From the NCBI RefSeq assembly GCF_003351905.1, contig NZ_CP022339.1:570001-602000 (forward strand): 32,000 nucleotides of DNA. The letters are read 5' to 3'. Below the pieces are notes generated by a model. The model had not been told where the DNA came from and did not search any database. It worked only from the letters and a program-made list of their open reading frames with translations. Source of the stretch: Candidatus Saccharimonadota bacterium (GTDB lineage Bacteria; Bacteroidota; Bacteroidia; Cytophagales; Amoebophilaceae). The translations under genes were made by a program, and so were the position numbers. This document shows positions 4,264-31,735 of this stretch, piece after piece; position 1 is the stretch's first letter; every line of letters begins with the position of its first letter.

Positions 4264-7200
4264 TTAAGACTTTACCATTGTTATATTTAATGCCCTTTCA
4301 GCATGTAATTGCAGTTCATCAGTTATATCAACCAGTTGTAGCTGCATAGCCAATGGTAGATAAAAGTCTTGAATTAATCTTATTTTCTCTAGCTGCTTTT
4401 CGATGGCGTGACCAGCAATCGTTCTTGCATTATGTAACACATCTGCTAGCCTAATCAGTATCGCATCTTGTTTTGTATGAGCTATGATTTGTTCGATATA
4501 GGTAGCATAATCCTCTTTTTGGTTGGGTAATTCTTTTTCTAAGCGTGCTGCCGCCCATACCGTCTCTGTAATAGCAGGGCCAAATAGCGTCGTTAAGCCT
4601 GCTTCTGTAAAGGGTGTATTTTGTACCACATCATGGACTAAACCTGCAATAATTACACTGGTGTCTTCCGTTATCGTCAGTAAAATGGAGGCTACGGCCA
4701 TGGGATGTAAGTAAAAAAGTTCACCTGTTTTTCTTCTTTGCGTGGTATAATAGATTTTAATTAATTGTAGTGCATCCATTACTGCATCTACCTTAAGTCC
4801 TTTCTTCTGCTTAACCTTTTCTAGAAAATCAGCTTCTGCTTGTATACTTATTGGGTCCAATACCGTCGTTTGTGTATAGACAACAGGTGAAAGCGTAGCA
4901 AATGCCTTCGTAATTTCTTGCACGTTGACAGGTATTACGTATAAATGGGTGATTTCTGATGCAGAACAGAATCGCTCATAGTACCCGTAATGTGCATGTA
5001 CAATATGTTGATTTTCTGAATCTATTTTTTCTTCATACGCATCTAAGATTTGAATATCTGCCATTTCTGCCACCTTATAAATGGGGGCTATGGCAGGCAA
5101 TTGTGTGGCAGTGGTGATGCAAAAGCTGATTGCATTGATTTTTTGTAACTTACCTTGTAACAGTGTGAGTCGATAACCTAACTGTGTATCATCTATATAT
5201 ATATAGATATCCTTTCTTTGATCGCTATGTAGAGATTCATGTGTGCTACAGGCGTATAAACTACTGATGATTAGATTTTTAATGCTTTCTATTGCACACT
5301 GTATATAGAGGTGTTTGGTGTTGATCATTACATAGGGCGTCTCATATATATTGCTGATTGTTATTGTATCAAAACATTCGGCTAATAGTTGATCAATGCT
5401 CATCCAATTCGTAACTAAATGGAGGTTATATTTTAAATGTTGAAAGATGCTGTTAAAATATTTTTTTAACCTAAGTGTTTGATCTGCATAGGTAAGGAGT
5501 CGTTCCTCTGGTTGATCCAATCGCATGAGTTGGTGGTTCAATTGGGAGATGATCCAACTGCTTTCATAAGCCAGTGCTTCTACTTGTTGTTTATTAAAAA
5601 ATTGCCTGGCATTTTGCTCTTCTTTTTCACTAGTTAATGTTTGTATGATTGATAAGCGCTTACCTAAGGCATGCGTATGGTATAAAAAACCGCCCACCAA
5701 AATGAAGAACATAAGTAGGGTGTAGGCAATATGCAGATTCAGGTCTAAAGGGTAATCGATCAATGCAACGGTGCCGTCCATATAGTGGCGCAAGGTCCAC
5801 ACTACTATAGTACTCATGATGCAGCCAATGAGTAGCACGATCAATGGGGTAATAAAAATAGATAAGAGCAGGTTGAGTATACAAATGGTGGTATATAAGT
5901 AGGTGAATTTACTAAGCATAGCCATGCCCGTACCTACTAAAAAAAGAAAATAGACATGACTGAATGGCCATATTACTGACGCTATTTTTCGGATATAGCG
6001 TTGGGGCGAAATGAAGGGGTAAATGAAAAAAAATGTGGCCACAAAGAGGCTGGGTAAAAGCATAAAGACTTCTAGTCTGGTATGCCATATGGGATGACTG
6101 GTAAAAGTATACAAGGAACCATAACCTGTTAGAAGGATATAAAAACCAAACAGTATATAGGGTAGGTGATGCTTGGGTAAGGATAGGTAATCCCCAAGAT
6201 TAAATGGCCTAATCAAGGCATGTTTAGACAATCGCTTCCATAACGGTGGCGGTTTAACTACCGGATCTTGGGCCAACCTATTGGTGCAGTGCGGTGGGTT
6301 TGTACTTCGTTTACCCTTGAAAAACTGGATCACTAATATGCTAAGTAGGTTCACCATCATAGCTGGGAGTAGACTACACATACCTGGGTTAGCTATACAG
6401 CAGGACCAGGTTATAGTCGTTAGACCACCTGCTAGCATACCTGCTAAAACCGCGTGGGGATGTAATGCAATGCCGATTAATGAGAGTAATAAGGGTAGGC
6501 TTACCATGGTTTTAAACAAAATAATAGCCATTGCTATCAGTTGTTCTTGTGTGTATAAGGCAATAAGCGTGGCCATCATGCTTACTATTGCCTGATACAG
6601 GATCGGCTTTTTTACCCATTTGAATAGATCTGGCAGGTCGTTGGTTATTAAACGTGTGGCGGCGTGTAAATTTGCACCTGCTGTAGACAGCGTCAATGCG
6701 GCGGCACCTATCATAAACAACCCTTTTAACCCTAGATAAGCCTCAAAAGAAGTCATGACCAATGGCATTAATTTGCCTGCGTTTTTTTGTGCCAACAGCG
6801 CCACCCATAGTAAAAGCAAGTTGATGCTTAATGACAAGAAACCTGCACTATTAAAAGTCCGTTTTACTTGCGTAGCATTTTCAGCAGCTAAAATGGGTGC
6901 TACCTGAGCAGGGTAGAAAGCAGGTAGGACAAAAGCCATACCATACACCATATGATTCAGTGGAACCGCATCACGCAAACGATCCCAGCCATCTTTAATG
7001 GCTAAAGTAAAATGCGCTTGATCCCCATAGGGGTGGGTTACCATGCTTTTCCATAAAATCCAAGCGATGAGGGGGAGCAATATGCCAAAGGTCGCACAGC
7101 GTGCTACACGTACCAATGTTGGCGGGTGTATCTGGTTGGGTCCAACAGGCAACATGATCAAGAGTGCCGCGATCAGCAGGCTATAATGTGGTTGCATGGC

Positions 7201-7632
7201 AAAGTACCAACCTATAGCCACGGAAAGTAGCTTACACTGCATAGCAGCTGCTGCAGCGCTATGTAAGATACCAGATAGGGCGACCATTTTTCGAATAGGG
7301 TTGCCATAGAGCCGGCCCATTATTTCTGCTACTGATCCAGTATTAAAAAAAAGATGCAACCGATGGGCCAGCAGGTTGCCTATTATAAAATAGCTGAGCA
7401 TGCTGCCTGCCCAATATAATAAGCCATCTATATGCAACGGATTACACAACACCTCTCCTCCATAGGTTATCGCTAAGATGGCTGTTATAGTATGCGCTGC
7501 TGTAAAGTGCGTATATGGGTGGGAGGAATGTTTGGTAGCACGGATGCTAACGAATAGGTAGGCTAATAAAAAAAGAAGAAAAATAATACTGTCTAAGTCC
7601 ATTACCGGTCCTGTAATTATTGTGCTGAACAA
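4264..7632 (-). CDS. Giant polytopic protein: degenerate SSS-transporter-like domain + second TM block + histidine-kinase-like module + RelA/SpoT-type HD domain
   Basis: The ORF is 1122 aa. The N-terminal multi-TM region is paralogous to the 14889-18491 and 18788-20218 proteins (SVAEIMGRLYGNPIRKMVALSG vs SIAQTMGHVYGRYARIVTALVG). The mid region has an H-box-like ISQLNHQLMRL and a CA-like tail IVHAHYGYYE...LYVIPVNV. The C-terminus reads GELFYLHPMAVASIL...AGLVHDVVQNT...RLADVLHNARTI, matching (p)ppGpp-hydrolase HD motifs. Confidence 0.75.
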   Translation of the reverse strand: MFSTIITGPVMDLDSIIFLLFLLAYLFVSIRATKHSSHPYTHFTAAHTITAILAITYGGEVLCNPLHIDGLLYWAGSMLSYFIIGNLLAHRLHLFFNTGSVAEIMGRLYGNPIRKMVALSGILHSAAAAAMQCKLLSVAIGWYFAMQPHYSLLIAALLIMLPVGPNQIHPPTLVRVARCATFGILLPLIAWILWKSMVTHPYGDQAHFTLAIKDGWDRLRDAVPLNHMVYGMAFVLPAFYPAQVAPILAAENATQVKRTFNSAGFLSLSINLLLLWVALLAQKNAGKLMPLVMTSFEAYLGLKGLFMIGAAALTLSTAGANLHAATRLITNDLPDLFKWVKKPILYQAIVSMMATLIALYTQEQLIAMAIILFKTMVSLPLLLSLIGIALHPHAVLAGMLAGGLTTITWSCCIANPGMCSLLPAMMVNLLSILVIQFFKGKRSTNPPHCTNRLAQDPVVKPPPLWKRLSKHALIRPFNLGDYLSLPKHHLPYILFGFYILLTGYGSLYTFTSHPIWHTRLEVFMLLPSLFVATFFFIYPFISPQRYIRKIASVIWPFSHVYFLFLVGTGMAMLSKFTYLYTTICILNLLLSIFITPLIVLLIGCIMSTIVVWTLRHYMDGTVALIDYPLDLNLHIAYTLLMFFILVGGFLYHTHALGKRLSIIQTLTSEKEEQNARQFFNKQQVEALAYESSWIISQLNHQLMRLDQPEERLLTYADQTLRLKKYFNSIFQHLKYNLHLVTNWMSIDQLLAECFDTITISNIYETPYVMINTKHLYIQCAIESIKNLIISSLYACSTHESLHSDQRKDIYIYIDDTQLGYRLTLLQGKLQKINAISFCITTATQLPAIAPIYKVAEMADIQILDAYEEKIDSENQHIVHAHYGYYERFCSASEITHLYVIPVNVQEITKAFATLSPVVYTQTTVLDPISIQAEADFLEKVKQKKGLKVDAVMDALQLIKIYYTTQRRKTGELFYLHPMAVASILLTITEDTSVIIAGLVHDVVQNTPFTEAGLTTLFGPAITETVWAAARLEKELPNQKEDYATYIEQIIAHTKQDAILIRLADVLHNARTIAGHAIEKQLEKIRLIQDFYLPLAMQLQLVDITDELQLHAERALNITMVKS

Positions 7633-9363: not shown

Positions 9364-10581
9364 GTGGCCGTGGTGCCCACTAATAGGGATCAATATAATA
9401 TTTATATGACAATGGTTTTTAGTATGTTTCGGTTCAGATATTTGTTTTTTATATGGTTGTCATTGGCTTCCTTTGCAGGTCTTCGTCGCAATCACCCTAC
9501 CAGTCAATCTCCCGGTAAGGTAAGCCAGACGACAGGGCGTCCTTTTAACCAGCCAGATACCCTTTCGGTAGTTCCTTGTAAGGCAAGGCCACCTATTCCA
9601 GGTATGGTCTATATTGAGGGAGGGTATATGATCATGGGTAACTTAGGTGAAGATAAACTGGGTACAGGGGGTTGTTGTGCCAAGCCTGTTACCGTTAATT
9701 CTTTTTGGATGGATGAAACACCTGTTACCAATTTGGCCTATAGAGAATACCTCTATGATTTGAAACAGCGTGGCTTGATGGAACAATATCAGGCTGCTAT
9801 GCCCAATCAGCAAGTTTTTATAGAGCACTTTAGCTACAATGACCCATTGGTAGACAATTATTTATATGCACCTGGTTTTATGTACTATCCTGTTGTGGGC
9901 GTCAGTTGGGAGCAAGCTATGAAATATTGTGCGTGGCGGACCGAGAAACTTCATGAGGCGATTAAGAAACGCAAAGGAAGTCCAGTTCCCGATCCTGATC
10001 CTGATGCGGGATCCTCGAATGGTGAAGATGAACCAAAGTTTATGGTTCGGTTGCCTACTGAAGTAGAATTTGAATATGCTGCGCGTGGTGTAGTGGGCGC
10101 ACCGGATATAAGCTATTTACAAAGTCATCAGCGCAACTACCCTTGGGATGGATCTTCTCCAAGAGGAAAAAATGGTCGGTTTTTAGCTAATTTTAAGCGC
10201 GGTAAAGGCAATTATAAGGGAATGGCTGGTGAATCTGACCATTCGGCACCAACTTCTAACGTCTATGCCTACCCTCCTAATGCAGTTGGTCTTCGCGATA
10301 TAATGGGTAATGTCTGTTGTTGGACACTTGATACCTATAGGCGCATACAAGATACAAGTGATTTAAATCCAGTTAGGCGTGATGGTTTTTTGGATCCTGC
10401 TGCGCACTATAGTGCAACCCATAAGGCTTCCCTGGTGAATGATGATGCAAAAGTCTATAAAGGCTGTTCTTGGGCAGACTGTGCCTATTTTTTACAAATA
10501 GGTACCCGCCGGTATTTGAATAAAGATTCGGCTACGGCTACCATTGGTTTCCGGTGTGTGGTTTCCAGCTTAGGGCAGTAA
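9364..10581 (+). CDS. FGE-sulfatase/SUMF1-fold protein, GldJ/GldK-like
   Basis: GMVYIEGGYMIMG, FWMDETPVTNLAYREY, YPVVGVSWEQAMKYCAWR, LPTEVEFEYAARG, GNVCCWT and FRCV are the spaced motifs of the formylglycine-generating-enzyme fold used by Bacteroidota GldJ/GldK. The track start is GTG. The ATG at 9406, followed by a hydrophobic leader, is a more likely start. Confidence 0.7.
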   Translation: MAVVPTNRDQYNIYMTMVFSMFRFRYLFFIWLSLASFAGLRRNHPTSQSPGKVSQTTGRPFNQPDTLSVVPCKARPPIPGMVYIEGGYMIMGNLGEDKLGTGGCCAKPVTVNSFWMDETPVTNLAYREYLYDLKQRGLMEQYQAAMPNQQVFIEHFSYNDPLVDNYLYAPGFMYYPVVGVSWEQAMKYCAWRTEKLHEAIKKRKGSPVPDPDPDAGSSNGEDEPKFMVRLPTEVEFEYAARGVVGAPDISYLQSHQRNYPWDGSSPRGKNGRFLANFKRGKGNYKGMAGESDHSAPTSNVYAYPPNAVGLRDIMGNVCCWTLDTYRRIQDTSDLNPVRRDGFLDPAAHYSATHKASLVNDDAKVYKGCSWADCAYFLQIGTRRYLNKDSATATIGFRCVVSSLGQ

Positions 10582-12249: not shown

Positions 12250-13548
12250 TTACGTCCATCTGTATCGCACCCGATAAGCTCCTACATTGACTAATTTGTA
12301 CACTTTGTGGAGCTTCTCGTCGGGGAGTTCCTTATACCCGTTCTTCCTACTCCCTTTCTTTTTCATGATAAATCTTCTCAGACGCCTGTTTGCATGCCCT
12401 TGTACTTTCCTAAATCTCCTAGAACTGGCCGTGTGACGGTAATACTCCGTCCACCCCAGTAAGGATGCGTTTAAGTCTTTAACAATAGTTTCAACACTTT
12501 CGTGCAACCGGTTCCGATAGGTCAATTGCGTGACTTTCTTAATAATCCGCTTGATTGCATCAGGTGTAGGATACATATGGGTAACGGGTTTCTGATATCT
12601 TGGCGAGTATCCCCTTTTAAAGGCATACCCTAAGAAATTGAAACCTTCTTCGGCCGTGGTCATTCGACTCTTTTCTTCATTGATCGAAAGGCCCAAGCGT
12701 TGCAGATACCCACATAAAATACCCAAAATCTTCTCTACCGGTTTATTCGACACTATCACGAGATCGTCCGCATAGCGGACAATCTGTGCATTCCACCCAT
12801 TCCTTTCGGTCATCCGCTTGACCCATACTGTGTCTAGCAGATTCAGGTATATATTAGAAAGTAAGGGCGAAATGGGGGACCCTTGAGGGGATCCTTGTCG
12901 AGTAGCAACTTCTTCGCCTTTAAGGACTCCTGAGCGAAGCCAGGCTTGTATTAACTTTAGAACATACCTATCACTGATTCGCTTTTGAATGACTTTCATA
13001 AGCTTATCGTGTGGGATTGAGTCAAAGTATCGCTTCAAATCAATATCTAAAACTTGGGTGAGCCCGTAATTAAGCCATTTATATATTGATAGACTTGCAT
13101 GGACTGCGGATCGTTTAGGTCGAAACCCAAATGAGCATTCTTGGAAGTCTGCTTCAAAAATTGGCTCTATAACAAGACGGGTTGCAGTTTGTACTAAGCG
13201 GTCCTTAATCGTGGGCACTCCCAAGATTCTTATTCCTCCTTTCGGTTTGGGTATTTCCACGCGCTTTGTCTTATTGCTTCGGTAGCTTCCTGATTCCAGT
13301 TCTTTTTGAACTTGTCCAAGAAACGCTTCTTCCCCTTGTTCTTTGATTTGTTCTATTGTTATTCCATCTATGCCTGGTGCCCCGTGATTTGCACAAACCT
13401 GTTTCCATGAACAGACCAGTACGTCCAATCTATATATTTTGTCATGAAGGGTGTAGAAGCTGCGTTTAGGATTAGACTTAGCAGATCGATAAAGTTCTCG
13501 CTGCAGTTCTCGGACGCTTTGTGCCATGTGGTTACCTTGCGGAATCAT
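12250..13548 (-). CDS. Group II intron-encoded reverse transcriptase/maturase (no obvious En domain)
   Basis: APGIDGITIE (RT0/1), RRVEIPKPKGGIRILGVPTIKDRLVQ (RT2), FGFRPKRSAVHA (RT3), VLDIDLKRYFDSIPH (RT4), VRYADDLVIV (RT5 YADD), then FLGY and GW..YYR of the X/maturase domain. The ORF is 432 aa. Confidence 0.92.
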   Translation of the reverse strand: MIPQGNHMAQSVRELQRELYRSAKSNPKRSFYTLHDKIYRLDVLVCSWKQVCANHGAPGIDGITIEQIKEQGEEAFLGQVQKELESGSYRSNKTKRVEIPKPKGGIRILGVPTIKDRLVQTATRLVIEPIFEADFQECSFGFRPKRSAVHASLSIYKWLNYGLTQVLDIDLKRYFDSIPHDKLMKVIQKRISDRYVLKLIQAWLRSGVLKGEEVATRQGSPQGSPISPLLSNIYLNLLDTVWVKRMTERNGWNAQIVRYADDLVIVSNKPVEKILGILCGYLQRLGLSINEEKSRMTTAEEGFNFLGYAFKRGYSPRYQKPVTHMYPTPDAIKRIIKKVTQLTYRNRLHESVETIVKDLNASLLGWTEYYRHTASSRRFRKVQGHANRRLRRFIMKKKGSRKNGYKELPDEKLHKVYKLVNVGAYRVRYRWT

Positions 13549-14888: not shown

Positions 14889-17800
14889 TTACTTGTTTTT
14901 GTTAACTTTTCCTTTTTTTATGTTTACTGTATCCTTATCAATATCAATCTTTAGCGCCTCTTTAGCTGCATGTTCTAATGCAGTGCCTATCTCTGGACCT
15001 AAGTAAGTATGGGCTAACTTCACATCTATGTCTAAGGTTTCTTGCGCCATATGGTGCACCTCTGTTGGATGGATATAACTTGCCGCCTGGTGTAGGTCAT
15101 AGAGCCGCTCGGCTAGCTTAATAAAGAGTACAGAAAGCTGTATATGCTCTTCCTTAATCGCTTCTTTCAATCGATTTTGCACATAAAGCAAGGAAGGGTG
15201 GTCTAAGTCTTGGCGTTTGTCTATACTTATTACATTCAATACAAAGGCATAAACCCCTAAGTTATAATGTTCCTTGACATAAGAAAGTGGTAGGCAGGTA
15301 TGGCGCACCAGTTCATAGAGCAAAGCAGCATAAATTACTTTAGGGGAGTGAAAGACCCATTCTACTATTAACGTGGTAATCCCTACCGCACGTACATAAA
15401 ACAATTGACCCGAGGCATGCCGTTTAAAGCCAAAATGTTTCCGTAGTAATAAAAGCAAACCTGAAATCGTACCTAGGTCAATAGGATCGGATCGATGAGA
15501 AGACTGGCAGATATAGTCATGGAACTGCATTAAGGCCATCATGGAATCAGCTTGCTCTTTAGGGGTAACAGGGGTTTCTGAGGTTAAGCAATCTAAAGGT
15601 AGCTTAGCCGTCATCTTACTCAGCATATCCGTCACATCATTAGGCAGTACCAGTAGCATAGTGGGTTGCTGCTTGTCATCGCATATTTCCAAATGGCCAT
15701 AGTGAGCCCCAACAATACTGGATATGGTTTCTTGTTGGAGGTCTATAGATGGTGGCACTGCTTGTTTCCCTGGATCGTCTATAGCATCTATCCCATCATC
15801 ATAGATACCCTGCACTTTAGGCAATGCCTCAGGGGAAGTAGTAGCTTGACTGAATACTAGGGCAGTCGCTTGAAAAAGCATATATACAGGACAGCTGCTG
15901 TCAATAGGGTCAGCTTGCTTAAACTGCAACGTGGTGCCATGCAGTTGTACCTTTACAATGGGTACAGTATTATCCTCTAGCTTACCAATACGTAAAACAG
16001 CTTGTACCAGCAAATAGACGATTTGGTTGATATCGCATACTATATGCGGGCATGGACCCCCATTAGGATGCATTATCTTTTCTACCAGCAGTCTAGGTGG
16101 ATCAATCACCTCTTGGGATAATGCCAACTCTACCTTACGCATCAACTGATCGAAGGTAATTTGAGCGGGTTGTAGTAGGGCATGCTTTTTAGCTTTTGCT
16201 CTCCTATTAAAATAGGCCACCCAATCATAAAGCTTATTGATAATACTTTGAAAATCTTGCTTATAAAGTGGTACGTTGCTATCTAAAAAAGAGATGGATT
16301 CCTCAATTTTCCCTATTACTTGCGTTAAAATGGCGCCATAGCCTTTGGCTTGACTCATCGTAGTGGTGGGCACCATGGCTGAATCGTAAAGAGAAGCTTT
16401 GAGTTTGCGATCCTTTGCAATCTTTTCTTGATTTTTTAGGTAAAGAATTTGAGCAATATAGCGATCTTGTTTGATTTTAAAGAAAATAATAATAGCGAAT
16501 AGGAGTAGTAGACTCACTATACATAGCGGTAATAAAGAAGATAACAGCGGAAAGCAGGGACCAGTAGCAATAGGATAAATGGATATGAGTAAGGTGGTTG
16601 TTGCCACTCCTATTCCTAGATAAAGGGGTAATCCCCATAAGATGACACCACAATGGGCTAAAGACAAAGAAGCCGAAAAAATCGGTTCTGTTAGATACCA
16701 CCAGGTACCAAGCAAATTCAAAGGAAGATAAACGGCTAATCCTACTAGCCAACATAGACCAATAAACCAACTGGGAATATCCCTTATCCTTTGGAAGATA
16801 TCATAGAGAAATGGGTAGCCTAAATAACAAGCCGCTCCAAATAGTTGCAGTATAAGCCAGCAGACATGATGCGCAATAGGCGCTATAAAATAAGCCAGTA
16901 AACTAGTCACGGCTATATAAATGCCTACACATATGATCATAGTATGGTTGGGTATCAGGTTAGCCAAAGTGATTTTTCTATTGGCCCAACCATTTTTAAT
17001 CGCTTCTTTTCGTTCCGCCTGCTTGCGTGCATGCGCTTGTTGCATTTGTTTAAAATCGGGGTCTGGCCCTACCCAACCAGCCTCTTTTGGCTGTTTGAAT
17101 AAATAATGGGCCGCTAGCATAGCTAAGCCATTGGCTAACATGGAAGGGAAGGCGCCATTTATTCCCATCTCTGGGTCAAGTGGCTCAATCCATTTGTTCC
17201 AAGCTAAAATAGTTAGTGCACCTGTAGCCATACCGATTAAAGCAGTACGAGTGGTGCCCCGAAAACCGAAAATAGCCAATATAAAGGGCGCTGTTATAAC
17301 AGGGATAGCAGAATCAAGAACCCAATATGTTAATTTTAACAGATCTTGACAATAAAAAGCTAGCATCATAGCTAATAAGCCCAACACTAGCGTGGTCCAT
17401 CTAGCTATTTTAAGCTGATGCGCATCATCAATTTGTTTTTCCTTGTGTATACTTTGCAATATATCATAGCTAATCATAATAGAACAAGCATTTAAGCAAG
17501 AGTCAGCTGTAGACATCGCCATAGCGAGTAAACTAACGGCCAAAAATCCTTTAAAAAAAGGGGACATATGAGTCATAATGTACCCCCAAACCTCTTCTTT
17601 AGACAAGTGTGGTGCACCTACAAAAACAAATAGGCCAATTAGAATAATAAAAGAAGCTATAATAAGATTAAAAACAGTAGCATATGAAAAAACCTTTTGG
17701 GCCTGAATGGTACCAGAAGACATGTATACCCGCTGCATAAGTTGGGGTTGGACTATATAGGATACTAAGACAGCCAATATGAGGGAAAACAAAGCTATTA

Positions 17801-18491
17801 ACTTAGTATCAAAATGGAATAGGGTACTAAACTGAAATTTAGCTTGGTTGTGCAGTATAGGAATGATGGTTGATACTGGTTTACCTGCTTTTAGAAATAT
17901 AAACCAAGTCAAAAGAGGAATAATAATGGAAAAGGTTAGAAACTGTAGTATATCTGTAAAGGTAACGGCACGGACCCCCCCAAATGTTGAATAGAAAACA
18001 AGGAATAAGCTGGCGAAGATAGGTACTAAATAGGGGTTATCTACGTGCACACACATAGTAATGGATCGAGACATTACAGTAATCTGCATGGTAATTATAA
18101 TGATACAACGACAAGTACCAACCAAAGCCGTCACGATTCTTGCATATCTGCCATAGACATGACCCATCGTCTGTGCGATAGAGAAGTGTTGCATAAATGG
18201 ACCCATACGTAAGGCTAACTTACCAATAGTCCATAAACCAAAACAATCTAAAAATACAAGAACTATCCACCATAAGCCATATTCATAGACGCACTCTACG
18301 TCACACATTAATGTGCAGCCAGCATATAAAGTGGCCAATACCGTAGCAACTAAAGTAGCGGTAGCAAACTGTTTATTCCCTACTGCATATTCTCGAAAAG
18401 TGGTTTTTTTTCTACTAAAGTAAATGCCTACAACCAAGGTTAGCAATAAAAAAATGGCCACTATAAATAGGGAGATGTTTAAACAGAGCAT
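14889..18491 (-). CDS. Giant polytopic protein: SSS (sodium:solute symporter)-like domain + second TM block + degenerate histidine-kinase-like module + degenerate RelA/SpoT-type HD domain
   Basis: The ORF is 1200 aa. It carries the SSS hallmark FGGVRAVTFTDILQF and about 13 TM segments in the first 480 aa or so, then 6-7 further TM segments and a coiled-coil. A CA-like region follows (IVCDINQIVYLLVQAVLRIG ... IVGAHYGHLEI...TMLLVLP). The C-terminus, SGQLFYVRAVG...AALLYELVRHT...IKLAERLYDLHQ, aligns to the HD_4 motifs with HP, HD, ED and N replaced. Confidence 0.75.
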   Translation of the reverse strand: MLCLNISLFIVAIFLLLTLVVGIYFSRKKTTFREYAVGNKQFATATLVATVLATLYAGCTLMCDVECVYEYGLWWIVLVFLDCFGLWTIGKLALRMGPFMQHFSIAQTMGHVYGRYARIVTALVGTCRCIIIITMQITVMSRSITMCVHVDNPYLVPIFASLFLVFYSTFGGVRAVTFTDILQFLTFSIIIPLLTWFIFLKAGKPVSTIIPILHNQAKFQFSTLFHFDTKLIALFSLILAVLVSYIVQPQLMQRVYMSSGTIQAQKVFSYATVFNLIIASFIILIGLFVFVGAPHLSKEEVWGYIMTHMSPFFKGFLAVSLLAMAMSTADSCLNACSIMISYDILQSIHKEKQIDDAHQLKIARWTTLVLGLLAMMLAFYCQDLLKLTYWVLDSAIPVITAPFILAIFGFRGTTRTALIGMATGALTILAWNKWIEPLDPEMGINGAFPSMLANGLAMLAAHYLFKQPKEAGWVGPDPDFKQMQQAHARKQAERKEAIKNGWANRKITLANLIPNHTMIICVGIYIAVTSLLAYFIAPIAHHVCWLILQLFGAACYLGYPFLYDIFQRIRDIPSWFIGLCWLVGLAVYLPLNLLGTWWYLTEPIFSASLSLAHCGVILWGLPLYLGIGVATTTLLISIYPIATGPCFPLLSSLLPLCIVSLLLLFAIIIFFKIKQDRYIAQILYLKNQEKIAKDRKLKASLYDSAMVPTTTMSQAKGYGAILTQVIGKIEESISFLDSNVPLYKQDFQSIINKLYDWVAYFNRRAKAKKHALLQPAQITFDQLMRKVELALSQEVIDPPRLLVEKIMHPNGGPCPHIVCDINQIVYLLVQAVLRIGKLEDNTVPIVKVQLHGTTLQFKQADPIDSSCPVYMLFQATALVFSQATTSPEALPKVQGIYDDGIDAIDDPGKQAVPPSIDLQQETISSIVGAHYGHLEICDDKQQPTMLLVLPNDVTDMLSKMTAKLPLDCLTSETPVTPKEQADSMMALMQFHDYICQSSHRSDPIDLGTISGLLLLLRKHFGFKRHASGQLFYVRAVGITTLIVEWVFHSPKVIYAALLYELVRHTCLPLSYVKEHYNLGVYAFVLNVISIDKRQDLDHPSLLYVQNRLKEAIKEEHIQLSVLFIKLAERLYDLHQAASYIHPTEVHHMAQETLDIDVKLAHTYLGPEIGTALEHAAKEALKIDIDKDTVNIKKGKVNKNK

Positions 18492-18787: not shown

Positions 18788-20218
18788 TTATAGATAGTTT
18801 GGTGATTTGGCACAACTTAACTTGTATTTTCCTACTATTTTAAGTAGATAGTGGGCGGTTATCATAGTCAAGCCATTGGCTACCATAGCAATAAAAGAGC
18901 CGTCTACCCCTGTTGATGGTTCAACCCATTTGTTCCAAGCTAAAATAGTGAGTACACCTGATGCCATACCGATTAAAGCCGTATGGGATGTGCCTCGAAA
19001 GCCAAAAACAGCTAAGATAAATGGGGCAACGGTAATAGGTAGATAAAGCCCAAGATTTAATTTGAGCAAATCCAACAAATTGGTATAGTAAAAGGTTAAT
19101 ACCATAGCAAATAGCCCTATAAAAATGGACGCAATTCTTGCTAACTCGAGCTGATAAGGATAGGTTTTTGTACTACGTATAGATGCCAGTATATCATGAC
19201 TCACTGCAATAGCGCCTGAGTGTAAACAGGAGTCAGCAGTAGACATAGACATAGCTAGTAAACTAACAGAAAGAAACCCTTTAAGCACAGGTGGAATGTC
19301 CGTCATGATATAGTCCCAAACCTTGACTACTGAAACCTCTGGTGTACCTACAAAAATAAGTAATCCAATCAAGCATATAACCATATTGATGCATATCCCA
19401 AAAAAACCAGCATACCGGAAAACATTCCTAGCCTGTGTGGGGCCAGAAGACATATACACCCTATGCACAATAGGCGCGTCTATATAAGATGCAAGGATAG
19501 ATAAAGCCAGCGCAACCATGGCCACTAGATTCATATCGTAATGGAATATGGTACTGAGTTGAAATGTATCGTGTTCCTGTAAAAGTGGAAAAATTTCTAA
19601 AAATGGTTTGCCCAACTTCATAAATATAAACCAAGAAAAAAAAGGTAGAATAACAGCAAAAGTCATAAATTGTACTACATCGGTAAATACAACTGTACGA
19701 ATACCTCCAAAAGAGGAATAGAAAATCAGGGCTAAAGTAGAACAGACCGCAATGAACTGAGGATCAACTGTATGTATGCATATGCGAATCGATGACGCCA
19801 TTACATGCACTTGCATCGCAACCATTGTAACGGAAGAACCGATACTGCAAAGCGCCACAATAACCCTGGGGCACTTGCCATAGACGCTACCTATCGTTTC
19901 TGCCATAGAAAGATTTTGCATAAATGACCCCATACGTAGTGCCAACCCACTCACCACCCATAAGCCTAAGTCGCCTAAAATAACTATAATCATCCAATAA
20001 AGCCCAAGTGTATGAATCTGTTCTACATTACGGGCCAACCCACTTCCACTATAAGCAGTAGCCAATATGGTGGCTACCAAGGTAGCGGTAGCAAATTGTT
20101 TGTTCCCTATCGCATATTCTCGAAAGGTGGTTTTTTTTCTACTAAAGTGAATACCTACACCCAAGGTCAGTAATAAAAAAGCGGACAGTATACATACCGA
20201 GACATCAAAAGAGATCAT
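18788..20218 (-). CDS. SSS-like membrane protein, truncated tandem paralog of the 14889-18491 N-terminal domain
   Basis: The 476-aa ORF is collinear with residues 1 to about 470 of the 1200-aa protein (FSRKKTTFREYAIGNKQFATATLVAT, FGGIRTVVFTDVVQF, LIGMASGVLTILAWNKWVEP). It ends where the paralog continues. Confidence 0.75.
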   Translation of the reverse strand: MISFDVSVCILSAFLLLTLGVGIHFSRKKTTFREYAIGNKQFATATLVATILATAYSGSGLARNVEQIHTLGLYWMIIVILGDLGLWVVSGLALRMGSFMQNLSMAETIGSVYGKCPRVIVALCSIGSSVTMVAMQVHVMASSIRICIHTVDPQFIAVCSTLALIFYSSFGGIRTVVFTDVVQFMTFAVILPFFSWFIFMKLGKPFLEIFPLLQEHDTFQLSTIFHYDMNLVAMVALALSILASYIDAPIVHRVYMSSGPTQARNVFRYAGFFGICINMVICLIGLLIFVGTPEVSVVKVWDYIMTDIPPVLKGFLSVSLLAMSMSTADSCLHSGAIAVSHDILASIRSTKTYPYQLELARIASIFIGLFAMVLTFYYTNLLDLLKLNLGLYLPITVAPFILAVFGFRGTSHTALIGMASGVLTILAWNKWVEPSTGVDGSFIAMVANGLTMITAHYLLKIVGKYKLSCAKSPNYL

Positions 20219-27897: not shown

Positions 27898-28443
27898 AGG
27901 TGGTCTATAGGGGCTGATGTCTCAACAGGTATCAGGGAAAAAATAATACGATATGCTAATTTGTTAGCTATAAGTTTATAAAACTTTTACTGGGTACAAA
28001 ATTAGCGCATAAAAAATAAAAAGAAGGTTAATGGGTCAACTATTTTACTAATATATAGACACTATGTGTATTTTTTGACTTTCATAGTCAATTATATAGT
28101 TTTTTATTATCTTCTATTTGCTTATATCTTTTTGAGCAAGTAGTATTACCGTTGACTTGTGAAGATGTTCCGTTTATATGGAAAGATATAACCTTAAGCA
28201 ATATACATAGACCACTCTTAAGTAAGTATTTTGATGTTTGAGCAGGGGTGTTTGGAATTGTATTTGATTTTGCTTACTATTCAAAATCGGTTTAATAGAA
28301 TGTATTGGTTCCATACGTCTAGTTTTTTCCTTATCTAGGGCTCAAGCAGATGGCGCAATAGGCCTATTGATGAGGGTATGTACATTTTGATGCAATACTG
28401 TTTAAGTGGTGATAAGCACCATAGGTTTAACCATCTTAATATT

Positions 28444-29307
28444 ATGAAAAAGTATATGCAATATAGCGTAATCCTGCTTATCGGGCTATTAGGCCTACAG
28501 ACCTTGTCTGCTTGTGTACATACAAGAGCAGCAGTAGGTTGTAGGGGCAGTGTATGCACAGAGCAGGTACTAGACTTGGACATGGAGCGCAGCGGAGATA
28601 GCAGCCAGGTAAAAATTAAAAAACCAAACACTACAGCTTATATGATGCTAGGGTGTCTGTTAGGATGTATAGTAACGGGTTGCTTGATGCTACCGGTTTT
28701 TCATAGTTATTTTGATTATTACGTAGGTTCATCCAATACATTTCAGTTCAATAGAAGCAATCATTGTACTCATGCAACCACCCCTTCACAATTCATATTA
28801 GACGTAACCACTATGTCCAGCATGGTTAACATGACTACGGAAAAGGAACGATTCGTTATAGATGCGATTGGTACGTCAAAATGGAACGCAGTACCTGCAC
28901 GCCCTTTAGATGACCAGGTTATGGATGATCTTATTAGTGAGTTTTCAATAGAAAAGATAGCAGAGTGGCTTGCGAAAGGCTTAGATATAAACGCACCAGA
29001 CGAGAACTTGGGATACACGTTATTGATGCATGCCGTATGGTATAATAGTCGACATATTGTTCAATGCTTAATAGAGAAAGGAGCGGATGTGAATGCACAA
29101 GGTAAGGATGGAGCCACGAGTCTCATGATAGCAGTCAAGCAAGATGATGCGCCTATGGTTTCGTTTTTAATAGAACATGGAGCAGACCCATGTATAGCAG
29201 ATCACCAAGGTAACACAGCGCGGTCCTTAGCCCAAGCTATTGCTAAACATACCCAGTCTAAGACTATAATAGTAATGTTGGATCGAGCACAGCCATGTGT
29301 AGCGTAA
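28444..29307 (+). CDS. Ankyrin-repeat protein with lipoprotein-type signal peptide
   Basis: The start is moved to the ATG at 28444. MKKYMQYSVILLIGLLGLQTLSAC has an L-S-A-C lipobox-like end. A second hydrophobic segment follows. The C-terminus has about 3 ANK repeats (GYTLLMHAVWYNSRHIVQCLIEKGADVNAQ, GKDGATSLMIAVKQDDAPMVSFLIEHGADPCIA, DHQGNTARSLA). Confidence 0.8.
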   Translation: MKKYMQYSVILLIGLLGLQTLSACVHTRAAVGCRGSVCTEQVLDLDMERSGDSSQVKIKKPNTTAYMMLGCLLGCIVTGCLMLPVFHSYFDYYVGSSNTFQFNRSNHCTHATTPSQFILDVTTMSSMVNMTTEKERFVIDAIGTSKWNAVPARPLDDQVMDDLISEFSIEKIAEWLAKGLDINAPDENLGYTLLMHAVWYNSRHIVQCLIEKGADVNAQGKDGATSLMIAVKQDDAPMVSFLIEHGADPCIADHQGNTARSLAQAIAKHTQSKTIIVMLDRAQPCVA

Positions 29308-29318
29308 GATGCATGGCC

Positions 29319-30851
29319 TTATTGCATGTTGGTTGCACTTGACCTGCAAGTTGGGCAATCTACCTTACCTATTAGGTGGTGGTATTTTTTTGCAAGCATA
29401 CGGGCTGCTGCAATCCAAGTGAGGCAAATTAAAAAAAACAGGACCATTAAAAATGGTGCCAGTTGATTTGGCTCGGCAGCTGAAAAGATAGTATAACAGA
29501 TGACTTGTACAACCGCCCCTGCAGACTTCCCTATTTTTCCCCCTAATATATCCACCGCTGCTTTTCCTTTTGTGCTCATCTCTTGGTCTAAAGGAATATA
29601 GGCCATCTCTTTAGTGACATCAAAAAAACAATATTTCGTTCCCTTTGCCAATACATTTTGCAGGCCGCCAATCACTACAATAGCTGTTAAAGTGGATATA
29701 CCCATGATCGTCTTTGATACAAGGTGGTAATCCACTGCAATAATCAGCAGGAAAAAAGCACTACCTACTATAAGGGTGGTAACAGGTGTGATCAGTGCTG
29801 CCCCTAGCCAGTTTAGTTTCCGAATCACTACATGGCCAAAACAAGCACAAGACAATGTGCAAATGCCCGTCCAGAATAATACCCTACCTTGGTAGGTAAT
29901 AAAATGGGTAGGATCTTGCTGGTATAGCTGACAGGTTTCATAAAACCAGAGGCCCTCTATTAAATGCACAACCATAGAGTAAGCAATCATCAATATACAA
30001 ATTAATGAAAGGTATTTAGACCTAGCAATCATTTTAAAACTTTTATATAACCCCAGGTGTAGTCTAGTGGTATGCCTGCCTTGTATCCTTTGGCCGCAGA
30101 TGATATATTGTTCGATATACTTATGTAAAAGCAGCATGCAGAGGCATAGCGTGGCAATAACAATCATGAGTGTGGCTATTTTTGAGGCTGTTGCCACTGT
30201 ATACCTACCTATGAAACGCAATAAAAAGTGATCAGCACGCGAAAAGTAGACCATGATACTGCCAGAGATAAGCAGGTTGGCTTGTCCAATCAAGTTGAAA
30301 AAGAAGTAAAAGCGACCCGCTTCTTCTGTTGTCGTTATTTTGTTAGCCAACTGCCAATACAACAAGGTAAAGACAATCATAGGCCAAAGTTCACCTAACA
30401 TATAGAAGAGTATTAAGGTCCATTTACCCCACATGATAAAAAACCATTTCAGATAGGGGTAAAGCCTAATGTAGGCATCCACCTTACAAGGATCAGGATG
30501 CAAGAGCCCCTGGTAAGGGAATAAAAAAAAGCCGAATAAAAGAAAAAAAAAGAGAAAGAAGACGATAATGCCTCTAAAAATCTTTTCTGTGGTTACCCTA
30601 TTACATAAGACCGTATAGACCACTACAAATAAAATTCCTGCGGGCATTTCAACAAATAGCTTAATAAAGCTCAATACTTCTGCCCCTATTAAGGTGACTA
30701 CTAGACCATCTTTTATGCCACGGATTAAATTTTGATTCAGTAAGATAAGAAACATCAAGATAGCCATAGAAAAAAATTTTTGCAGTGCGTGTCCCTTAAT
30801 AGGCCACTGCATAGGATGCCATTTTTTTAGTAAGGCTGTTACATGTTTCAT
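29319..30851 (-). CDS. tlc: ATP/ADP (nucleotide) translocase, Tlc/NTT family
   Basis: The ORF is 510 aa with 12 TM segments. The N-terminal region KFFSMAILMFLILLNQNLIRGIKDGLVVTLIGAEVLSFIKLFVEMPAGILFVVVY follows the Rickettsia/Chlamydia Tlc signature (F.ILFNY.ILR..KD.LVVT..GAEVI.F.K). Confidence 0.9.
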   Translation of the reverse strand: MKHVTALLKKWHPMQWPIKGHALQKFFSMAILMFLILLNQNLIRGIKDGLVVTLIGAEVLSFIKLFVEMPAGILFVVVYTVLCNRVTTEKIFRGIIVFFLFFFLLFGFFLFPYQGLLHPDPCKVDAYIRLYPYLKWFFIMWGKWTLILFYMLGELWPMIVFTLLYWQLANKITTTEEAGRFYFFFNLIGQANLLISGSIMVYFSRADHFLLRFIGRYTVATASKIATLMIVIATLCLCMLLLHKYIEQYIICGQRIQGRHTTRLHLGLYKSFKMIARSKYLSLICILMIAYSMVVHLIEGLWFYETCQLYQQDPTHFITYQGRVLFWTGICTLSCACFGHVVIRKLNWLGAALITPVTTLIVGSAFFLLIIAVDYHLVSKTIMGISTLTAIVVIGGLQNVLAKGTKYCFFDVTKEMAYIPLDQEMSTKGKAAVDILGGKIGKSAGAVVQVICYTIFSAAEPNQLAPFLMVLFFLICLTWIAAARMLAKKYHHLIGKVDCPTCRSSATNMQ

Positions 30852-30976
30852 AAAGTAAGTTTAAAAATTTCTTAAGGGTTACAATTGGTCCATGGTGTCA
30901 TTCTTACATTAACACCATGTCTTGAACAGTTTAAGTTACTTAGCGCAGTACAAACCGAGTAGGTATATCTTGCCCT

Positions 30977-31735
30977 TTAAGCTTTTCCCAAGAAAAGCAT
31001 GACTAGGCTATGGGCAACAGAGTAGGGAACAATTTGCAAGATGCGCATGGTTAATCCATTAAAGATGGCAAGAAACTTCTTTTCTACTGTAATGTTATGT
31101 TTAAGTCGTCCTATCCAAGTCATAGGCACCTCTGAGCCACAATTTTGTGTGGCGATTAGATCAAATGGCATCGTTAAGGCAGATACAGCGATACCCAATA
31201 CCGTACTAACCATCATATTAATCCACACCCCACTGATATCCTTTGTAAATTCATATGCCAATATAGAAGCGGAGCCACTCAGTATATTCCTTAAAAAGAT
31301 CGGCGTTACAATATCACTCATCCTTTCTTTTCGTTTCATTAAAGCCCCTTTATTAGCAGCAATTTCTTTTGTTTCGCTATATATGGTTACGGCTGTTTCT
31401 ACCATTCCTGCTAAGAAGCACTCCCAGATAACCAGTAACGCAAAATTGCTTATCGCATAATAATCAGTAGAACAAAGGAAAAGCCACTGAGAAACTCCAA
31501 AGGCCAAAGCCGCTATAAACTGTCGAAGTGCATAAATATGTGCGCCGGAAAAAAATAATTTAAAATTTTTAGTACGTATGCACCTGGTCACAATAGAGGC
31601 ATAAGATTCGCCGGTTTCTTGGTAGACTACTTTTACAAACTGAGCAGGTGCCACTAAGTAGGCTACGACCATACAAGCGATACCATGTGCAAGTGGATCA
31701 AAAAAAAAGCGGTATAGCAGTGTGTTGTATTCCAT
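30977..31735 (-). CDS. Short 6-TM protein with mitochondrial-carrier-family-like tripartite motifs
   Basis: The ORF is 252 aa with six hydrophobic helices in three pairs. After the odd helices come PAQFVKVVYQ (aa 30), YSETKEIAAN (aa 119) and PFDLIATQ (aa 190), resembling the P.[DE]..[KR]...Q carrier signature. Each is followed by F.G....LRQ/LR-like segments (LFFSGAHIYALRQ, IFNGLTMRILQIVPY). Confidence 0.45.
   Translation of the reverse strand: MEYNTLLYRFFFDPLAHGIACMVVAYLVAPAQFVKVVYQETGESYASIVTRCIRTKNFKLFFSGAHIYALRQFIAALAFGVSQWLFLCSTDYYAISNFALLVIWECFLAGMVETAVTIYSETKEIAANKGALMKRKERMSDIVTPIFLRNILSGSASILAYEFTKDISGVWINMMVSTVLGIAVSALTMPFDLIATQNCGSEVPMTWIGRLKHNITVEKKFLAIFNGLTMRILQIVPYSVAHSLVMLFLGKA

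Follow-up and report, generated by a model that had tools for sequence, protein, structure and literature searches.

Mitochondrial carriers are treated as a eukaryotic invention, and the sole studied bacterial example, LncP of Legionella pneumophila, is a weapon sent into host mitochondria. Carriers were found by hidden Markov model (HMM) in L. pneumophila, Legionella longbeachae and Neorickettsia sennetsu (two copies), and LncP was shown to be secreted by Dot/Icm and to transport ATP in the mitochondria of the host (Dolezal et al. 2012, PMC3252375). A Cardinium gene, cPpe_01095, was later listed as a horizontally acquired 'mitochondrial carrier protein'; it is a core Cardinium gene with 66–67% identity between strains, and its best outside match is to Neorickettsia, at no more than 33% identity over 90% of its length (Brown et al. 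2018, PMC6232779). Here, the product of a 252-aa open reading frame (ORF), an orthologue of cPpe_01095 encoded on the minus strand of a 32,000-nt stretch of DNA (contig NZ_CP022339.1, positions 570,001 to 602,000; the window), was analysed for fold, motifs, relatives and gene context. A preliminary description of this ORF, made from the sequence and its translations, had suggested a possibly novel carrier-family protein and named LncP as the known bacterial case. With the L. longbeachae, N. sennetsu and Cardinium carriers already described, LncP is not alone and the carrier is not new as an object. Full-text literature searches returned no paper on this carrier going beyond Brown et al. and Dolezal et al.; the motif erosion, the predicted lack of a middle matrix helix, the Arg-Asn contact point II and the adjacency to tlc set out below appear not to have been reported previously.

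Gene conservation and membership of the carrier superfamily

The ORF is a real, conserved gene, because its product has 23 homologues of near-equal length (57–97% identity) with a conserved N-terminus, and pairwise dN/dS across 11 orthologous loci is 0.06–0.15 (10 comparisons in which dS could be estimated). The closest homologues are from Candidatus Cardinium (publicly annotated as 'hypothetical protein', the top one being 97% identical), the best-matching genome locus is that of Cardinium sp. TP, and remoter homologues come from metagenome-assembled genomes (MAGs) of Amoebophilaceae. These homologues, together with ordinary bacterial genes in the window (TLC translocase, FtsW/RodA, NusA and IF-2, which flank the carrier gene, and a pseudouridine synthase), show that the DNA is chromosomal and comes from a member of the Bacteroidota living as an obligate intracellular symbiont of arthropods; its source is Candidatus Cardinium (Bacteroidota, Amoebophilaceae). 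Recent transfer of the gene was rejected, since its GC content (0.397 vs 0.41 for the window) and its GC at third codon positions are similar to those of its neighbours. A 139-aa ORF on the opposite strand (31041–31460) was rejected as a shadow of the carrier gene.

The whole protein matched the Pfam model Mito_carr (PF00153) in two stretches at 37.9 bits (curated cut-off 22.3 bits, E = 1.5e-9), which puts the resemblance to the carrier family claimed in the preliminary description far beyond chance. The model was also matched by all 24 family members, and no other Pfam model was matched consistently. A search of NCBIfam gave no match at E ≤ 10, so that, with Mito_carr as the only Pfam match, no bacterial family model was matched, and the ordinary bacterial family of six transmembrane (TM) helices that the preliminary description had considered as an alternative was not found in either collection. 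When the three thirds of the protein were searched separately, repeats 1 and 3 were recognised and repeat 2 was not (scores in Table 1), so that recognition repeat by repeat held for two of the three. Using hhalign, repeats 1 and 3 were aligned in register over 71 columns (E = 5.4e-5), and, for repeat 2 against repeat 1, the second helix alone (H4 to H2) was aligned in register, weakly (E = 0.03).

A first AlphaFold model (24 sequences, pLDDT 77.5) and a second one (AF2; 40 more diverse sequences, pLDDT 90.3, pTM 0.86) gave the same pattern in Foldseek searches, and the AF2 model has six long helices, matching the three pairs that had been predicted from the letters. In the search of the PDB, the top 11 matches were all mitochondrial carriers, 10 of them with TM-scores of 0.60–0.72 and the eleventh with 0.43, followed by the next unrelated fold at 0.26; non-carrier folds overall had TM-scores of at most 0.41 and probabilities of at most 0.51. 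Human UCP1 was best by E-value (E = 1.8e-4, TM-score 0.67), yeast ADP/ATP carriers were also among the top 11, and the highest TM-scores (0.71–0.72) belonged to carrier-like subunits of Tetrahymena complex IV. The alignments to UCP1, the ADP/ATP carrier and the Tetrahymena subunits were full-length (265–296 columns), and sequence identity to solved carriers was only 12–15%. The predicted fold is that of a carrier, as the preliminary description had anticipated.

A sequence search of the PDB with the single protein found nothing, and a search with the family profile gave two insignificant matches (SEA domain 1ivz_A, E = 0.39; an MTCH2/UCP1 chimera, E = 1). These non-significant matches show how far the family has diverged, and because of them homology rests on the Pfam profile and the fold, by which the ORF product is identified as a true mitochondrial carrier (SLC25/MCF) superfamily protein, though one that is reduced in size and degenerate. 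Fold matches and repeat alignments together predict three two-helix repeats in a six-helix barrel with threefold pseudo-symmetry.

The family profile also gave repeated weak SEA-domain matches over carrier residues 36–73 (approximately 31517–31630), and a 3717-aa mucin-like protein had 11 stretches matching the profile (summed E = 7e-18). These SEA-type matches are probably a coincidence of composition or of a short motif (YQET..SY..I....L...N.K.FFSG), and could contaminate iterative searches started from the carrier family.

Repeat architecture and signature motifs

The register of the repeats was fixed by a MAFFT alignment of the protein's own repeats with 13 strict Px[DE]xx[KR] repeats from five canonical carriers taken from the tail of the profile search. 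Repeat length is approximately 84 aa, compared with approximately 100 aa in canonical carriers. In the AF2 model, the matrix helices h12 (residues 45–54) and h56 (residues 207–216) are predicted and a separate h34 is not; H3 continues as far as residue 132, and a loop of 10 residues then leads to H4, which starts at residue 143. The lack of a separate matrix helix in repeat 2 would account for most of the approximately 45 residues by which the protein is shorter. Coordinates of these and all other features of the carrier and its partner gene are collected in Table 1.

Table 1. Features of the carrier gene, its product and the adjoining TLC gene, in window positions.
Feature	Position	Strand	Basis
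Coding sequence of the 252-aa divergent mitochondrial-carrier-family (MCF/SLC25-fold) protein, including stop codon	30977..31735	-	ATG-started ORF
Repeat 1 (residues 1–93): H1, matrix helix h12, H2	31457..31735	-	PF00153 23.7 bits alone; in register with canonical repeats; AF2
Repeat 2 (residues 94–168), most divergent: H3, short loop without matrix helix, H4	31232..31456	-	No PF00153 match; AF2
Repeat 3 (residues 169–252): H5, matrix helix h56, H6	30980..31231	-	PF00153 20.8 bits alone; hhalign to repeat 1
H1 signature, P30-A-Q32-F-V-K35-V-V-Y-Q39	31619..31648	-	Register against canonical repeats
H3 signature position, Y119-S-E121-T-K-E124-I-A-A-N128	31352..31381	-	Register inferred from G110 spacing
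H5 signature, P190-F-D192-L-I-A195-T-Q-N-C	31139..31168	-	Register against canonical repeats
Sole surviving cytoplasmic-network motif [YF][DE]xx[KR], Y161-E162-F-T-K165 on H4	31241..31255	-	Regular-expression scan and canonical alignment
Contact point I, R71-Q72 on H2	31520..31525	-	Aligned with Arg of canonical repeats
Contact point II, R149-N150 on H4, class R[QHNT]	31286..31291	-	Register R149 + 13 = E162; canonical alignment
R231-I-L-Q234 on H6	31034..31045	-	Alignment with canonical repeats and family alignment
TLC-family ATP/ADP (nucleotide) translocase, 510 aa, directly downstream of carrier	29319..30851	-	PF03219 462 bits; TIGR00769 382.5 bits
Carrier–TLC spacer, 125 nt	30852..30976	-	Between carrier and TLC genes
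TATATTTG, candidate promoter of the gene pair, approximately 175 nt upstream of the start codon	31911..31918	-	Matches Bacteroidota -7 consensus

The motif Px[DE]xx[KR] on H1, H3 and H5 is the signature of the matrix salt-bridge network (PMC7611774). The three motifs quoted in the preliminary description are all present (PAQFVKVVYQ at residues 30–39, YSETKEIAAN at 119–128 and PFDLIATQ at 190–197), and none of the three has the canonical form, with P-x-Q-x-x-K on H1, Y-x-E-x-x-E on H3 and P-x-D-x-x-A on H5. On H1, the acidic residue is replaced by Gln (Q32), and Lys K35 and the Gln brace Q39 are kept. On H3, where MAFFT did not align this half of the repeat and the register was placed by the spacing from G110 to residue 119, Pro is replaced by Tyr and a Glu (E124) stands at the Lys/Arg position; E121 and E124 are both invariant in Amoebophilaceae. 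On H5, Lys/Arg is replaced by Ala (A195), with D192 invariant and P190 near-invariant family-wide. This erosion of the signature is conserved across the clade in a 40-sequence alignment. Judged by these residues, one of the three matrix inter-domain salt bridges is predicted to be possible, that between D192 and K35. The cytoplasmic-network motif was not found on H2 and H6, where hydrophobic residues occupy its positions. With none of three canonical signatures and one possible bridge, the earlier characterisation of the protein as shorter and more degenerate than canonical carriers, with its salt-bridge residues partly lost, was confirmed.

The [F/L]-x-G-x(4-6)-LR-like segments that had been proposed to precede each even helix were recovered in part. 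Repeat 1 has such a segment (F-S-G64-AHIYA-L-R71), repeat 3 has F-N-G227-LTM-R231, with Q234 at the position of the canonical Arg, and the corresponding stretch of repeat 2 (T-P145-IFL-R149) lacks the Gly.

Contact points and predicted substrate class

Residues at contact point II sort carriers into classes, nucleotide carriers having G[IVLM], carboxylic-acid carriers R[QHNT] and amino-acid carriers R[DE] (PMC6769469), and the pair Arg-Asn stands at this point in UCP2 and AtUCP1/2, the substrates of which are dicarboxylates, phosphate, sulfate and aspartate (PMC6769469, PMC7611774). The nucleotide-type G[IVLM] was not found at contact point II of the ORF product, which has R149-N150 instead, with N150 invariant and R149 near-invariant in the whole family. 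Contact point I (R71-Q72) is invariant in Amoebophilaceae and not in the Rickettsiales relatives described below. Contact point III is Q234-I235 on H6, a place where a positive residue is usual, and the near-invariant R231 lies one turn towards the matrix side. Together, the conserved cavity residues R71 (in Amoebophilaceae), R231 and K35 would give a cationic site. Because R149-N150 is kept family-wide, a carboxylate or an inorganic anion, rather than a nucleotide, would be the expected substrate, and the position of UCP1 as best structural match by E-value was counted towards the carboxylate class. What the contact-point rule suggests as substrate is thus a small anion, either a carboxylate or one of the inorganic-phosphate class. 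Weak salt-bridge networks are associated with uniport (PMC7611774), and since the protein has one possible matrix bridge and one cytoplasmic motif, weak gates, and with them uniport or loosely coupled exchange, would be expected.

The clade of short bacterial carriers

An exhaustive profile search of 1.84 billion representatives recovered 46 proteins with E ≤ 0.001, of which 36 had E ≤ 1e-10. With few exceptions they are 240–273 aa long and matched over their full length, and canonical eukaryotic-type carriers came only at the extreme tail. Homologues in other intracellular bacteria, for which the preliminary description had called, were found in this way in Amoebophilaceae and in several Rickettsiales symbionts. 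The named members outside Amoebophilaceae belong without exception to the Rickettsiales (Candidatus Xenolissoclinum pacificiensis, Candidatus Xenohaliotis californiensis, Anaplasmataceae bacterium AB001_6 and 'Rickettsiales bacterium'), with 25–35% identity to the carrier, and every inspected contig of the clade carries bacterial neighbours (YajC, EF-Ts, SRP54, ribosomal proteins, type IV secretion genes). Across 40 members, Q39, Y45, N150 and D192 are invariant, and P30, G80, E113, T114, I125, K129, R149, P190, G200, G227 and R231 are near-invariant. By its full-length profile match, its length within 240–273 aa and the shared invariant residues, the ORF product belongs to this clade of short bacterial carriers.

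Neighbour-joining analysis grouped the Amoebophilaceae sequences in a single clade (bootstrap support 100%) with a long stem and with a metagenomic sequence as sister (77% bootstrap). This clade is nested among Rickettsiales-type sequences; deeper branches are unsupported. From this topology we infer one transfer into the Amoebophilaceae lineage. Most likely, the clade arose from an old eukaryotic carrier and then spread between intracellular bacteria, and descent of a Rickettsiales-centred clade from a pre-eukaryotic ancestor of the carrier family, in place of a eukaryotic donor, is very improbable.

Several relatives have gene contexts of their own. Xenolissoclinum pacificiensis has two short-carrier paralogues (244 and 250 aa) in tandem, 10 nt apart, which echoes the two copies of Neorickettsia sennetsu; a homologue search started from the Xenolissoclinum protein gave that protein alone. 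On the metagenomic contig of the closest relative outside Amoebophilaceae, the carrier gene is preceded by a gene for a 360-aa ankyrin-repeat protein and followed after 25 nt by one for a 587-aa protein without significant Pfam match, and no TLC gene is found there. On a 1.3-Mb metagenomic contig, a short carrier lies directly downstream, on the same strand, of two genes for SDF-family symporters (PF00375; dicarboxylate/amino-acid:cation symporters), the genes being 42 and 48 nt apart; this context was seen once, and fits a carboxylate-related role. In Anaplasmataceae bacterium AB001_6, the short carrier is located 1.8 kb downstream of virB10 (TrbI), virB11 (T2SSE) and virD4-like genes, with a FliI-like ATPase gene between the secretion genes and the carrier and FliH/FliN-like genes after it, which are unexpected in Anaplasmataceae.

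Pairing with the TLC translocase

A locus search with the 24-sequence alignment reached Amoebophilaceae only. In each of the 10 loci long enough to show it, the gene for the TLC translocase (Tlc) lies directly downstream of the carrier gene, on the same strand; this holds even for MAGs with 59% identity, and the next genes beyond the pair (FtsW, NusA) are conserved among closer Cardinium strains only. Two distant lineages have short gaps between the two genes, the Cardinium of Nabis limbatus one of 17 nt and an Amoebophilaceae MAG one of 18 nt. In the 125-nt spacer of the window, no terminator-like site was found on the minus strand. A perfect 8-bp inverted repeat (catggtgt...acaccatg, approximately 30890–30918, minus strand) with a loop of approximately 13 nt is not followed by a T-run; it was not called as a terminator, and cannot be conserved in strains with a spacer of 17–18 nt. 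Because gene order is conserved, gaps of 17–18 nt occur and the spacer has no terminator-like site, carrier and tlc are likely to be co-transcribed in Amoebophilaceae. The Bacteroidota -7 promoter consensus is TAnnTTTG, and the candidate promoter matching it, TATATTTG, is overlapped by a sigma-70-like match (TTGAAA-17-TATATT). An Rfam scan around the gene pair gave no RNA element. The pairing is absent in the Rickettsiales relatives that were inspected.

ATP/ADP exchange by such translocases leaves phosphate in the parasite, for which an 'interacting Pi export system' would be needed and has never been found (Trentmann et al., PMC2606016).

Membrane residence and proposed function

Several observations bear on where the carrier would work. 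Its grand average of hydropathy is 0.60 (family mean 0.67, range 0.41–0.97), compared with -0.20 to 0.30 in five canonical carriers, and its six best 19-residue hydrophobic windows have a mean of 1.77, compared with 0.91–1.56. Matrix-side loops carry a mean of 12.2 Lys and Arg residues against 2.0 on the other side, a bias that fits the positive-inside rule for a bacterial protein with both termini outside. Compared with the Nabis strain, identity is 90% for the carrier, 76% for TLC, 88% for FtsW and 91% for NusA, and the ankyrin-repeat protein encoded next to the pair is poorly conserved or missing; by this pattern the carrier behaves like a housekeeping gene and not like a fast-evolving effector. 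Its conserved partner, Tlc, is an inner-membrane transporter, which was counted towards residence in the bacterial membrane. The assumption of the preliminary description that bacterial carriers are host-directed effectors found no support here, since hydrophobicity, conservation and the link to tlc lean towards a resident bacterial transporter.

The reading we favour, with a probability of roughly 0.45, is that the carrier resides in the bacterium's own membrane, where it would move a small anion alongside Tlc. The carrier would be inserted in the bacterial inner membrane without export to host mitochondria, in the same orientation as in the mitochondrion, with both termini outside and the positive 'matrix' loops in the bacterial cytoplasm. 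The cavity lined by R71, R149-N150 and R231 would carry an anion of the carboxylate or inorganic-phosphate class, and weak gates would make for uniport or loosely coupled exchange and not for strict antiport. Tlc would import ATP and the carrier would handle the accompanying anion balance, as the most economical joint function; phosphate from imported ATP could, for example, be exported or exchanged against a host dicarboxylate, giving phosphate relief and carbon import at once. The full form of this proposal, in which a mitochondrial-type carrier native to the bacterial inner membrane forms a two-gene 'organelle-like' module with Tlc and exchanges phosphate or another small anion against a host carboxylate, is a speculation that we regard as somewhat unlikely.

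A number of points weigh against residence beside Tlc. AT-rich genomes inflate hydrophobicity and Lys content (through Ile, Phe and Lys), and the hydropathy values were compared with five canonical carriers only. Positive matrix loops are normal in mitochondrial carriers too, so that the charge bias does not discriminate. The contact-point rules are statistical, contact point III is Gln and not Arg or Lys, and a Glu at the Lys/Arg position of H3 (E124) has no precedent that can be cited. The absence of the pairing from Rickettsiales relatives means that it could reflect co-inheritance rather than joint function. Several nucleotide transporters (NTTs) co-export phosphate with ADP themselves, which would make a partner exporter dispensable (Trentmann et al., PMC2606016). 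The Cardinium TLC retains the conserved Lys-rich motif ...STKGKAAVDILGGKIGKS..., and with this motif intact there is no sign of lost phosphate co-transport, so that the translocase may not need help. The virB10, virB11 and virD4-like genes near the AB001_6 carrier are compatible with effector status, and the only experimentally studied bacterial carrier, LncP, is secreted and acts in host mitochondria (PMC3252375).

Alternative explanations

The precedent of LncP leads to the alternative that survives best, a secreted effector that would be imported into the inner membrane of host mitochondria, or into another host membrane, and would alter metabolite or ATP fluxes there. The sole characterised bacterial carrier works in this way (PMC3252375), the carrier fold is native to mitochondria, proteins with ankyrin repeats, a mark of host interaction, adjoin the carrier in the window and in related loci, and the AB001_6 homologue lies just downstream of type IV secretion genes. 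The hydrophobicity of the ORF product, however, far exceeds that of canonical carriers. In membrane effectors that are secreted, the segments tend to be weakly hydrophobic and so to avoid the signal recognition particle. To our knowledge, Cardinium has no type IV secretion system, and its phage-tail-like injection system is ill-suited to cargo with six TM helices. The housekeeping-like conservation of the gene, unlike that of the adjacent ankyrin protein, its operon-like pairing with an inner-membrane transporter and the loss of most signature and gate motifs used by canonical carriers also speak against secretion, and this explanation is considered unlikely.

Cardinium depends on host nucleotides, and a resident adenine-nucleotide carrier, similar to ATP-Mg/Pi carriers, could bring about net nucleotide uptake and so complement the strict exchange of Tlc; the operon-like link to a nucleotide translocase fits such a role. 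The BLAST matches of Brown et al. beyond Neorickettsia were eukaryotic SCaMC-1 ATP-Mg/Pi carriers (PMC6232779), and LncP transports ATP (PMC3252375). Set against this are the Arg-Asn pair in place of G[IVLM] at contact point II, a profile search in which hardly any canonical carriers were recovered, none of them recognisably a nucleotide carrier, and the failure of the family profile to find an ADP/ATP carrier in the PDB by sequence, which leave a nucleotide carrier decidedly improbable.

Little credence is likewise given to a degenerate fold reused as a structural or accessory protein, for instance an MTCH2-like insertase or scramblase, or a subunit partnering Tlc in the manner of the carrier-like subunits of Tetrahymena complex IV. 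The SLC25 family includes divergent members with roles other than transport (reviews including PMC7611774), the top TM-scores are to those Tetrahymena subunits, which are structural, the chimera containing MTCH2 is the best PDB sequence match to involve a carrier (though at E = 1), and the lack of all three canonical signatures, the presence of one cytoplasmic motif in three and the tight pairing with TLC would all be in keeping with such a role. It is opposed by the fact that the cavity residues R149-N150, R231, E113-T114, Q39 and D192 are the most conserved in the family, as expected of a substrate site, and that the TLC pairing is not universal in the family.

That the protein is a bacterial six-TM protein unrelated to mitochondrial carriers, and alike by convergence or chance, an option that the preliminary description had kept, is scarcely credible and was set aside, since the low identity to solved carriers, the lack of a significant carrier match of the family profile in the PDB and the failure of Pfam to recognise repeat 2 are outweighed by a Pfam match above the curated cut-off (E = 1.5e-9) in which all 24 members share, by two independently recognised repeats in register with canonical ones, Pro kink, Gln brace, Gly and contact-point Arg among them, and by an exclusive fold match with no other family claiming the protein.

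Other features of the window

A 309-aa protein is encoded convergently to the TLC gene (28378–29307, plus strand), with ankyrin repeats at its C-terminus (Pfam Ank, E = 2.7e-15) and a hydrophobic segment at its N-terminus; its identity in the closest strain is 57–79%, it is absent at the equivalent position in other loci, and it is a typical fast-evolving host-interaction protein, unlike the nearby carrier. A 1200-aa ORF (14889–18491, minus strand) combines an N-terminal sodium:solute symporter domain (SSF) with a C-terminal HD_4 domain (HD of RelA/SpoT type) and adjoins a 476-aa SSF protein (18788–20218, minus strand), and a 1122-aa ORF (4264–7632, minus strand) has a C-terminal HD_4 as its sole Pfam match; fusion of a transporter with an HD domain is an unusual architecture. 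A reverse transcriptase/maturase of a group II intron (RVT_1 and GIIM; 12250–13548, minus strand) marks a mobile intron in a reduced genome, and the 405-aa product of an ORF at 9364–10581 on the plus strand has a SUMF1-like FGE-sulfatase domain (E = 1.6e-38).

Implications

Cardinium and several Rickettsiales have tiny genomes, and strong purifying selection has preserved carriers of 250 aa in them. If the protein is a carrier of the bacterial membrane, symbionts would have copied the import machinery of an organelle to tap the same cytosolic metabolite pools, the family would offer a natural minimal carrier for gauging how much salt-bridge gating is needed, and it might answer how energy parasites balance phosphate. 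Should the two-gene module prove real, its carrier would be the 'interacting Pi export system' noted as never found by Trentmann et al., and the first mitochondrial-type carrier to work natively in a bacterial membrane. With a single gate interaction on the matrix side and a single one on the cytoplasmic side, it would also be the smallest carrier known to function. If the protein is instead a secreted effector, two further phyla of bacteria would join those using the strategy of LncP. Cardinium manipulates the reproduction of arthropods and is widespread, so that a core transporter is also a plausible dependency to target.

Comparison with known systems

The closest described genes are cPpe_01095 and the Neorickettsia carriers, which belong to the same gene family as judged by the descriptions in the respective papers; Amoebophilaceae homologues with 66% identity were recovered here. 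In those papers, the gene is a candidate for horizontal gene transfer (HGT) or an HMM hit, without architecture, residues, synteny or function. Compared with LncP, the Cardinium protein has 252 aa, no canonical signature, an Arg-Asn contact point II, marked hydrophobicity and a tlc partner.

Among eukaryotic carriers, the group of UCPs and dicarboxylate carriers (UCP1, UCP2, AtUCP1/2, DIC) is close, with UCP1 as best structural match by E-value and the Arg-Asn contact point II common to UCP2 and AtUCP1/2. The Cardinium protein differs from this group in having approximately 15% identity, a length shorter by approximately 40–50 residues, no predicted h34 and Gln at contact point III, and of the three matrix salt bridges and the three cytoplasmic motifs it retains one each. 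The likeness is one of contact point and fold and not a subfamily placement. MTCH1/2 and SLC25A46 are highly divergent and not classical carriers (reviews including PMC7611774). With these proteins and the Tetrahymena complex IV subunits, the Cardinium family has in common a carrier fold with eroded signatures; those proteins are eukaryotic, and outer-membrane or complex-bound, whereas the Cardinium family keeps a conserved charged central cavity, which argues for transport as its probable role.

TLC/NTT translocases are an unrelated family with 12 TM helices, and tlc is a partner gene and not a homologue; like them, the carrier would be a transporter for parasitism on host metabolites spread by HGT among intracellular bacteria. 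New here are a clade of bacterial carriers of approximately 250 aa extending over two phyla, the particular way in which its motifs are eroded, a predicted anion-type site, the constant association with tlc in Amoebophilaceae and the indirect indications of a place in the bacterial membrane.

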